64,000 nucleotides of DNA from the sequence record OL825705.1, one strand, 5' to 3'. This DNA comes from Escherichia phage vB_EcoM_DE7. Positions 11,487-12,482 of the stretch are shown here, piece by piece. The position numbers and the translations under genes were made by a program. Below the pieces are notes generated by a model that was not told the origin of the DNA, ran no database searches, and saw only the letters and a program-made list of their open reading frames with translations. Position 1 is the first letter of the stretch. The number at the start of each line of letters is the position of its first letter.

Positions 11487-11577
11487 GTTTTGACAGAAGA
11501 CCAATTGCAGCAAACTTAATCTTATTCATCTGACACGAAATCGGACAAAGAAGAGATTTGGTCTGGTCATTAAGAAT

Positions 11578-11654
11578 TGCGGGTATAGAGAAAGGGCGTC
11601 TCACATGTCTCATTAGCATGGTATCGGCAGGTTCGACTCCTGCACCCGCCTCCA
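11578..11654 (+). tRNA. tRNA-Met-type (anticodon CAT)
   Basis: Anticodon stem CATGT/GCATG, loop CT-CAT-TA; T-arm GCAGG-TTCGACT-CCTGC. Confidence 0.5.
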
Positions 11655-11731
11655 ATTTTGCAGAAGACCGTATGCAGCAATAAACTACTTTTTGCGGATA
11701 AAAGAAAAAACACGGTCTGGCAATGTATTAA

Positions 11732-11808
11732 GGTTAGGAAGCACATAAGGTATGTGCGGTCGCCTGTTAAGCGAATGGCACAGGGTTCGAATCCCTGACT
11801 AACCGCCA
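11732..11808 (+). tRNA. tRNA-Asn (anticodon GTT)
   Basis: Loop CT-GTT-AA; T-arm CAGGG-TTCGAAT-CCCTG; CCA encoded. Confidence 0.65.
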
Positions 11809-11879
11809 AATTTAGGAGAGAAGCGATTGCTCACCGATTTGTAAGGTGCAAGTCCTTAGCCTGAATAGAATAATAAAAT

Positions 11880-11967
11880 GTGTCGTTATCCCGTAGATGG
11901 TAGCGGTGGGGACTGTAAATCCCTTGTCATTGAGACTCGGTAGGTTCGACTCCTACACGGCACACCA
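11880..11967 (+). tRNA. tRNA-Tyr (anticodon GTA), long variable arm
   Basis: Loop CT-GTA-AA; about 15-nt variable arm; T-arm GTAGG-TTCGACT-CCTAC. Confidence 0.6.
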
Positions 11968-11972
11968 ATAAA

Positions 11973-12050
11973 GGCTATGTAGTTTAATAGGGTTAAAATA
12001 CTCCCCTGTCACGGGAGATGATGTGAGTTCAAGTCTCATCGTAGCCGCCA
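11973..12050 (+). tRNA. tRNA-Asp (anticodon GTC)
   Basis: Perfect anticodon stem CTCCC/GGGAG, loop CT-GTC-AC; CCA encoded. Confidence 0.7.
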
Positions 12051-12252
12051 ATTTTGAGAGGGCTATTTAGCCCCTCCCTTAAAGAGTTCTTGCGAGTATT
12101 CTTTAAAGGAGCAGAAGACCAAATACAGCAAGTTACTTAAAATTTCAAGCCAATTCAATTTTGAAAAAATTTAAAACTTGGTCTGACTCAACAAATTTAC
12201 AGAAGACCGTTTACAGCAAAACTTAAACAATCTATTTCTCCGGTAAAGAAAA

Positions 12253-12310
12253 GGCGAAGGTTCGATTCCTTCACTCGGCAGATGTCGAGTTGGTCTAATG
12301 GTAGCACTTA
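12253..12310 (+). other. tRNA-like fragments in permuted order (T-arm plus 3' acceptor strand followed by 5' acceptor strand plus D-arm-like segment)
   Basis: GAAGG-TTCGATT-CCTTC-ACTCGGC then GTCGAGT-TGGTCTAATGGTAGCAC; the two acceptor strands are complementary; no intact cloverleaf. Confidence 0.35.
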
Positions 12311-12482
12311 AGATGATAAACAACGGTCTGGTAATTATCTTTGCAGTAGCTTATGTGGCTAATTATGTCGTCCCATGAGTGCCGATGAATTTCCTTAGCA
12401 TGATTCTAGATTAGCTTAATAGGAAATGACTCTACAGACCCTTTAGCAAGGTCTGCGTAGGTTACTGCAAAGGTAATTTAAT

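Follow-up and report, generated by a model that had tools for sequence, protein, structure and literature searches.

Ro60/Y RNA particles have been described in animals, in some bacteria and in a few phages whose TROVE proteins are canonical. Y RNAs are encoded beside Ro60 genes and their ends form a stem-bulge-stem; in those of the YrlA type the T, closed acceptor and D elements come in permuted order (PMC4201824; bioRxiv 10.1101/312249). They tether Ro60 to PNPase (PMC4201824, PMC12135203), and one phage Ro60 binds two phage-encoded Y-like RNAs as well as the host PNPase (PMC12135203). The protein gp130 of phage Bas63 has a Ro60-like structure, counters the ppl defence system and is encoded upstream of tRNA genes (PMC11482910, 2024 preprint); the authors of that study suspected Y RNAs among the Bas63 tRNA genes and identified none (PMC11482910). 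Here we analyse a stretch of 64,000 nucleotides (nt) of Escherichia phage vB_EcoM_DE7 (OL825705.1; “the window”), in which a motif recurs four times between the tRNA genes at 11490-12460, downstream of a gene for a protein 97% identical to gp130. The motif delimits four small structured RNAs (units 1 to 4). That they belong to a family of structured RNAs linked to this gene can be said with much more confidence than that they are bound by its product; nevertheless, judging from the sequences, they are probably Y-RNA-like partners of the phage Ro60 homologue.

The motif, CAGAAGACCNNNTRCAGCAA, has four exact matches in the window (11494, 11661, 12112 and 12200), all on the + strand and all in the tRNA array, and no fifth site is found in the 64 kb even with three mismatches allowed. 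This pattern (CAGAAGACC-N3-TRCAGCAA) is observed four times for 0.43 expected, a count reached in none of 100 shuffles. The downstream partner YGGTCTGR has 12 sites in the window (5.0 expected), and the four that follow the motif copies lie at 11559, 11713, 12179 and 12324. The first-pass annotation, which had reported four copies each followed by a GGTCTG partner, is thus right on this point to within 1-3 nt. It had also proposed that CAGACC and GGTCTG pair with each other. An RNA helix does close there, but in a different register. The bases noted as N3 covary with the two bases 5' of GGTCT (AA/TT, GT/AC, AA/TT and GTT/AAC), to which their first two are complementary; the inner helix is therefore AGACCNN/NNGGUCU, of 7-8 base pairs (bp). 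The leading C of the motif and the trailing G are part of another helix, the outer one, set off by an AGA/G internal loop. Read in this way, CAGAAGACC comprises the last outer base pair, the 3-nt loop strand (A-N-A) and pairs one to five of the inner helix; N3 adds two further inner pairs and one unpaired base; TRCAGCAA is a box; and YGGTCTGR runs from the 3' strand of the inner helix through the loop G into the first outer base pair.

Each unit folded alone gives the same closing architecture, obtained four times: an outer helix of 3-4 bp, a 5' AGA opposite a single 3' G, the inner helix, which opens with A-U and G-C, and one base past it the single-stranded box UNCAGCAA (U-N-C-A-G-C-A-A). 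Unit 1, a short form at 11491-11569, has its outer helix at 11491-11494/11566-11569, AGA at 11495-11497 opposite G 11565, the inner helix at 11498-11504/11558-11564 and the box UGCAGCAA at 11506-11513. Unit 2, also short (11658-11723), has the outer helix at 11658-11661/11720-11723, AGA at 11662-11664 opposite G 11719, the inner helix at 11665-11671/11712-11718 and the same box UGCAGCAA at 11673-11680. In unit 3, the last short form (12109-12189), the outer helix (12109-12111/12187-12189) is weakened in this genome; the inner helix is at 12116-12122/12178-12184 and the box, here UACAGCAA, at 12124-12131. Unit 4 is a long form (12197-12334), with the outer helix at 12197-12200/12331-12334, AGA at 12201-12203 opposite G 12330, the inner helix at 12204-12211/12322-12329 and the box UACAGCAA at 12212-12219. 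All four are on the + strand; the inner helices and boxes are assigned by motif match and fold, and for units 1 to 3 also by conservation in relatives. The units begin 2-10 nt past one tRNA and end 8-12 nt ahead of the next. Their interiors are variable, units 1 to 3 holding short A/U-rich hairpins, and because of these A/U-rich interiors the folding energies of whole units are unexceptional (z from -0.6 to -1.7).

Unit 4 mimics a tRNA in the manner of YrlA, its elements being permuted. After the 5' strand of the helix and the box come a small V hairpin (12235-12251), a T arm (12256-12272; GAAGG-TTCGATT-CCTTC), a closed acceptor-like hairpin with a 7-bp stem (12273-12290), a D arm (12293-12307) and the 3' strand of the helix. 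This interior, on the + strand, is assigned by RNAalifold and by the covariance model R1 described below: the RNAalifold consensus of 24 sequences in a plain MAFFT alignment predicts the closing helix, the T arm, the acceptor-like hairpin and the D arm. A T arm placed 5' of a D arm with a closed acceptor-like stem-loop is found in unit 4 only, and units 1 to 3 have no such module. The units are not tRNAs: ARAGORN calls none of them, the acceptor-like stem of unit 4 is closed by a 4-nt loop, and the Rfam tRNA model matches part of unit 4 at 22 bits, under its threshold of 29.

The array region is that of a Felix O1-type myovirus; by megablast 294 phage records match 11400-12480, chiefly Felixounavirus, Mooglevirus and Suspvirus. 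Conservation in related phages had been set as a test of the motif, and all four copies pass it, being kept at the same places across these three genera with compensatory changes. The outer helix of unit 2 alternates between TTGC/GCAA and TTAC/GTAA, and that of unit 3 is GAGC/GCTC in most genomes. The acceptor-like hairpin of unit 4, here ACTCGGC/GTCGAGT, is fully replaced yet paired in Mooglevirus and Suspvirus: ACCCTTC/GAAGGGT in Mooglevirus HP1 (L002) and a related viral contig (L011), ACACG/CGTGT in Mooglevirus Sf15 (L003) and Suspvirus SUSP2 (L004). Relatives whose protein is 55-63% identical have an inner helix AGACTCT/AGAGTCT or AGTGTCT/GGGACAC with a loop AAA or ATA, and across them the box T-N-CAGCAA and the G past the 3' strand are invariant. 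The outer helix is lineage-specific, being strong in 18.5% of family members vs 3.4% of controls. Bas63 carries the same four units outside its annotated tRNAs, and a “hypothetical protein” annotated on the minus strand overlaps its unit 4.

The protein presumed to associate with the RNAs is encoded at 9379-10794 (+ strand). It has 471 amino acids, a HEAT-repeat ring and a vWA domain with a MIDAS motif (DxSxS at D279/S281/S283). Its Ro60 fold is seen by fold comparison, and only in this way is the relationship visible, since a phmmer search against PDB sequences gives no match. Its Pfam domains are DUF2828+DUF7788, not TROVE+vWA_Ro60. Relatives of this protein occur in at least 593 confirmed IMG/VR loci, of which 80 were fetched. 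The distant set consists of 72 loci with 39-48% protein identity, 41 of them without a tRNA gene. In many of the fetched loci “orphan” T arms adjoin the gene, inside the same architecture made of quite different helix sequences. We wrote this architecture as a strict descriptor: a 7-bp helix strand, one base, TNC[AC]GCA[ACT], 15-170 nt, the complementary strand and a G. Over the window and all loci it yields 160 matches on the gene's strand, vs 6 on the opposite strand and 8 in block-shuffled sequence. In the distant set 52 loci have a match within 800 nt of the gene, invariably on the same strand as the gene; 80 of the 95 matches fall in the flanks of the gene, which make up 14% of the bases. 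The loci carry 1-4 copies each, tRNA mimics included. A helix+box RNA is present in 29 of the 41 distant loci without tRNA genes, typically 20-36 nt past the stop codon; in several distant loci the RNA instead ends 14-19 nt ahead of the start codon. Thus the RNA travels with the protein gene and not with tRNA arrays, and the idea of a motif specific to this array, which the first-pass annotation had favoured, has to be given up. When the descriptor was relaxed to allow one box mismatch and 6 of 7 pairs, there were 32 vs 31 matches with the 3' G on the two strands, i.e. equal noise, and therefore no evidence for extra members in the window.

Two covariance models were built from distant phages only. 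The first, R1, is made of 18 long forms. Its best match in the 64 kb is unit 4 (12200-12335; 68.1 bits, E 2e-11), over the full length of the model; unit 2 scores 23.9 bits. The second, R2, is made of 31 short forms and uses 5 of the 7 pairs, because MAFFT could not bring the 3' strand of the short forms into register. It ranks unit 1 at the top of the window (31.5 bits, E 1.6e-5), with unit 2 at 30.9 bits (E 2.2e-5), unit 3 at 28.5 bits (E 9.3e-5) and unit 4 fourth at 20.5 bits; nothing else in the window falls below E 0.05. Over the 957 kb of loci R2 has 75 matches at E<=0.01; every one is on the gene's strand, and Bxz1, a phage with a canonical TROVE protein, has none. R1 finds 34 long forms at E<1e-4. 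In their alignment, which is fitted to R1 and so favours pairing, 97% of the cells pair, vs 60% in shuffles and about 40% with the partners slid, and both-sided changes occur in 21 of the 23 pairs. Short forms without a tRNA-like part also conserve the box and the helix.

Further forms appear among the distant loci. In L045 (5597-5711) and L048 (4278-4390) the module, arranged as 3' strand-G, small loop, 5' strand and UACAGC.., stands in place of the anticodon arm of an unpermuted tRNA-shaped RNA whose acceptor stem is open, and the Rfam tRNA model matches these RNAs at 49 bits with a long insertion. Since the module is found on permuted and unpermuted scaffolds, the family has two circularly permuted topologies. 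A third subfamily (L016 5276-5371, L017 3133-3233, L023 4595-4698, L025 149-281, L030 1265-1374 and L054 5734-5829) has the same handle (AGATTAG..CTAATCTG, together with the box) and an interior with a conserved CCUUUCUGGAGGGGAAAG hairpin and then GCAAAAACUCGCC; it has no tRNA-like part.

YrlA (RF02553; Salmonella, Mycobacterium and TROVE phages such as Bxz1) and the units are alike in being same-strand neighbours of a gene with the Ro60 fold and in having their ends paired into a stem. With unit 4, YrlA also shares the permuted T arm, closed acceptor-like hairpin and D arm, with a stem in the place of the anticodon stem. The differences lie in the ends, the partner and the location. YrlA has GNCGAAN0-1G/CGAA, whereas the units have the U-N-CAGCAA box directly past the helix and the 3' G; the partner of YrlA is a TROVE+vWA_Ro60 protein, that presumed for the units a DUF2828+DUF7788 protein; and the units, unlike YrlA, sit inside a tRNA array, while some of their relatives use an unpermuted tRNA scaffold. 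As a positive control the RF02553 model (Rfam 15) detects the RNA upstream of Bxz1 gp220 (TROVE + vWA_Ro60) at 32.5 bits. Conversely, R1 matches the tRNA-like core of the Bxz1 YrlA at 27.9 bits and leaves out its ends. The Bxz1 RNAs carry GCCGAGAG/GCCGAAGG, a Ro60-binding motif of the GNCGAA type, and no CAGCAA box. The search for phage YrlA RNAs by Chen et al. 2014 covered only genomes annotated with a TROVE protein.

Units 1 to 3 compare best with the short Y-like RNAs devoid of a tRNA domain, YrlB of Salmonella and Yrl1/Yrl2 of the Thermus phage phiLo, which were found and validated via a bulge CGAA (PMC12135203); in the units the AGA/G loop and the CAGCAA box take the place of CGAA. Metazoan Y RNAs (RF00019) differ from the units: they are RNA polymerase III products with a GGUCCGA/UUGACC helix bearing a bulged C, and have no tRNA-like domain. 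Scanned with Rfam at E<=1 and E<=10, the array gives tRNAs and no Y_RNA (RF00019) match, sub-threshold ones included, and at the gathering threshold 11 distant loci return only tRNA, permuted tmRNA and group I intron. The units and Y RNAs agree in their gene neighbourhood, in their stem-loop-stem ends and in the permuted tRNA module. They differ in the presumed protein-binding code, and their proteins belong to different Pfam families. Outside the Ro60 systems, species 1 and 2 of phage T4 (rnaC and rnaD) are non-tRNA small RNAs co-transcribed and co-processed with phage tRNAs; no Ro60-like partner is known in T4.

We propose that the motif forms a “handle” common to four small non-coding RNAs, which would be co-transcribed with the tRNAs and set free from the array transcript as the flanking tRNAs are processed. 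This handle, made of helix, A-N-A/G loop and box, would be the binding site for the Ro60-like protein, the orthologue of Bas63 gp130. The variable interiors, above all the tRNA-like domain, might engage other factors, in the way that Y RNAs tether Ro60 to PNPase. In this respect the suggestion of protein-binding sites made in the first-pass annotation is partly retained: a protein-binding module is the best reading of the motif, although not one restricted to the array.

Several observations weigh against this proposal. The sequence that Ro60 binds (GGUCCGA in animals, GNCGAAN0-1G / CGAA in bacteria and phages) is absent from the units and from the distant members; the loop region CAGAAG of the units resembles CGAAG, but this resemblance is not conserved, relatives having CAAAAG or CATAAG. 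RF02553 (gathering threshold 69 bits) has no match in 11480-12485 even at E<=10. For these two reasons, the missing canonical motif and the silent RF02553 model, the units are classed as a variant within the Y RNA kind and not as members of RF02553. In the D stem of unit 4 GTCT/GCAC contains a C-C mismatch, a single-base difference from the GTGT/GCAC of most relatives. Twenty of the 72 distant loci have no strict match near the gene, and the pair counts of the long forms carry the bias of the model-fitted alignment mentioned above. On the ppl defence strain T7 is rescued by gp130 on its own, whether the protein is supplied from a plasmid or encoded in the T7 genome (PMC11482910), so that for this phenotype the protein has no need of phage RNAs. 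Lastly, in vB_EcoM_DE7 the units are 700-1400 nt downstream of the gene, past promoter-like sites and tRNA genes, and an open reading frame (ORF) for an HNH endonuclease also lies in between; the link between gene and RNA rests on comparative co-occurrence.

Some of these points would be accommodated if the RNAs were real but their handle were read by a factor other than Ro60, such as a host factor (PNPase, a different RNase, an enzyme that modifies tRNAs or adds CCA) or a defence nuclease that the tRNA-shaped RNAs decoy. Gene and RNA would then co-occur through a common pathway and not through mutual binding. The lack of the canonical Ro60-binding motif and the activity of gp130 against ppl without phage RNAs agree with such a reader, as does the presence of the module, in some phages, on an unpermuted tRNA scaffold whose open acceptor end is amenable to tRNA enzymes. 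We nevertheless regard this explanation as rather unlikely. Against it stands the tight adjacency of RNA and gene: in phage lineages with little else in common the RNAs keep to the gene's strand and in many loci are only 20-36 nt away from the stop codon, an adjacency pattern which is that of proven Ro60/Y RNA pairs. Box and helix are also conserved in short forms devoid of a tRNA-like part.

The first-pass annotation had suggested RNA processing or termination signals. According to this reading the motif pairs would be RNase III or RNase E guide hairpins, or transcription stops between tRNAs, in line with the location of the units between tRNA genes, 2-10 nt from tRNA ends, and with stems bearing internal loops, as in some RNase III sites. 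Termination finds no support in the sequence: GGTCTG is followed by GTC, GCA, ACT or GTA, a T-run is absent, and there is no terminator-like site on the + strand of 11490-12460. As for processing, most tRNA junctions of the array are devoid of such an element, the same RNAs are found in the 29 loci without tRNA genes, and the conserved and covarying tRNA-like domain of unit 4 would be superfluous for a cleavage signal. Instead, each motif pair marks the 5' and 3' ends of a discrete small RNA, which in one case is a tRNA mimic, and we hold a role as processing or termination signals to be very improbable.

Cis-acting operators by which the Ro60-like protein would regulate its own mRNA, in place of independent RNAs, would likewise imply that the protein binds the motif. 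Such short distances to the gene as are seen in several distant loci (14-19 nt ahead of the start codon, 20-36 nt past the stop codon) would suit operators. The Ounavirinae copies do not, being 700-1400 nt from the gene and past separate promoter-like sites and tRNA genes, nor does a number of copies of 1-4 per locus with tRNA mimics among them; the chance that the elements are operators is slight. Decaying leftovers (tRNA pseudogene fragments, duplicated spacers, or inverted mobile-element ends tied to the local homing endonucleases) are hardly credible, since in spite of the tRNA-like pieces in unit 4, the pseudo-tRNAs annotated here in some records and the nearby HNH gene (11054-11410), the copies keep their position and number from genus to genus, with helices that show compensatory changes and not identical repeated ends, all matches are on one strand, and models from unrelated phages match significantly.

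Other candidates, inspected by eye, agree with neither the conserved positions nor the covariation: promoters on either strand (sigma-54 or other), cores of hammerhead and hairpin ribozymes, a bulge-helix-bulge splice site of the archaeal type, a genuine permuted tRNA gene, and inverted ends like those of a MITE (miniature inverted-repeat transposable element).

If the four units are indeed Y-RNA-like partners of the Ro60 homologue, their interest goes beyond this phage. The DUF2828-type protein is far commoner in phages than the canonical one (Felix O1-like and KVP40-like phages and many uncultured ones), and its candidate RNA partners are the four “spacers”, not the annotated tRNAs. A sequence-plus-structure signature and two covariance models recover the RNAs beside the gene in most distant relatives, and make testable the binding of protein to RNA, the factors recruited by the tRNA mimic and the share of the particle in counter-defence. 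The RNAs would also form a new family in RNA databases, and mis-annotated ORFs would be corrected in hundreds of phage genomes. A wider proposal, to which we would give an even chance, is that the helix and the U-N-CAGCAA module denote a large undescribed class of phage ribonucleoproteins. Each would associate a divergent Ro60 of the DUF2828 type (at least 593 IMG/VR loci) with 1-4 dedicated RNAs built on permuted or unpermuted tRNA scaffolds, would use a recognition code other than CGAA, and would act in counter-defence or in the control of host RNA metabolism.

Some of the RNAs are now annotated as small hypothetical ORFs. Coding sequences for small hypothetical proteins are placed over units 2 to 4, on either strand, in Bas63 (L089 22749-23023), Mooglevirus HP1 (L002 2197-2325) and Suspvirus SUSP2 (L004 1562-1732). 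These are probably mis-annotated RNA genes.

The array holds 24 tRNAs predicted by ARAGORN in the window (10960-16410, all on the + strand). A further tRNA at 11412-11483, missed by ARAGORN, is detected by Rfam at 55.4 bits and annotated as tRNA-Glu(UUC) in relatives. The HNH endonuclease ORF (118 amino acids, 11054-11410) lies between tRNA-Pro and this tRNA-Glu, two genes that only 7 nt separate in fKMPT1 and Bas63; it therefore looks like a homing-endonuclease insertion, present in this genome and some relatives. In the Bas63 record (L089) a polynucleotide kinase and a putative phosphatase are annotated at 555-1250 and 3279-4064, about 16-20 kb upstream of gp130. The Ro60/Y RNA genes of Salmonella are accompanied by RNA-repair enzymes (rsr-yrlBA-rtcBA).

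Other structured elements are present in the array. Between unit 4 and tRNA-Lys, a 150-nt element (12333-12482) has a 23-bp closing stem and three internal hairpins (minimum free energy -53.8 kcal/mol, z -6.7). Its long stem shows compensatory changes in relatives. Some genomes of Felixounavirus, Mooglevirus and Suspvirus carry the element, many of Felixounavirus lack it, and it has no Rfam match. It contains, at 12436-12456 on the + strand, the compact hairpin CAGACC-CUUUAGCAA-GGUCUG, which the first-pass annotation took for a compact version of the motif. The hairpin is there; its stem, however, is CAAACC/GGTTTG in relatives, a compensatory change by which the identity with the motif stem is lost, and the loop CUUUAGCAA alone stays the same. 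Both models, R1 and R2, miss the hairpin. Its relation to the family is uncertain; it may represent the module reduced to a minimal and degenerate copy, in which the box forms the loop.

The copies of GAAGACCG at 14052-14083, previously reported as a recurrence of the motif, were considered as family members and rejected: a box and a GGTCTG partner are both lacking, and neither model accepts the copies, R1 giving only a weak match (13971-14083; 18.3 bits, E 0.17) that spans the 3' part of tRNA-Thr. They lie in another hairpin (14035-14129; z -2.9), a conserved spacer between tRNA-Thr and tRNA-Val that is 95-100% identical in relatives. Just upstream of tRNA-Leu, a near-perfect long hairpin is found at 13538-13625, with arms at 13542-13562 and 13601-13621 that are 90% complementary (z -3.6).

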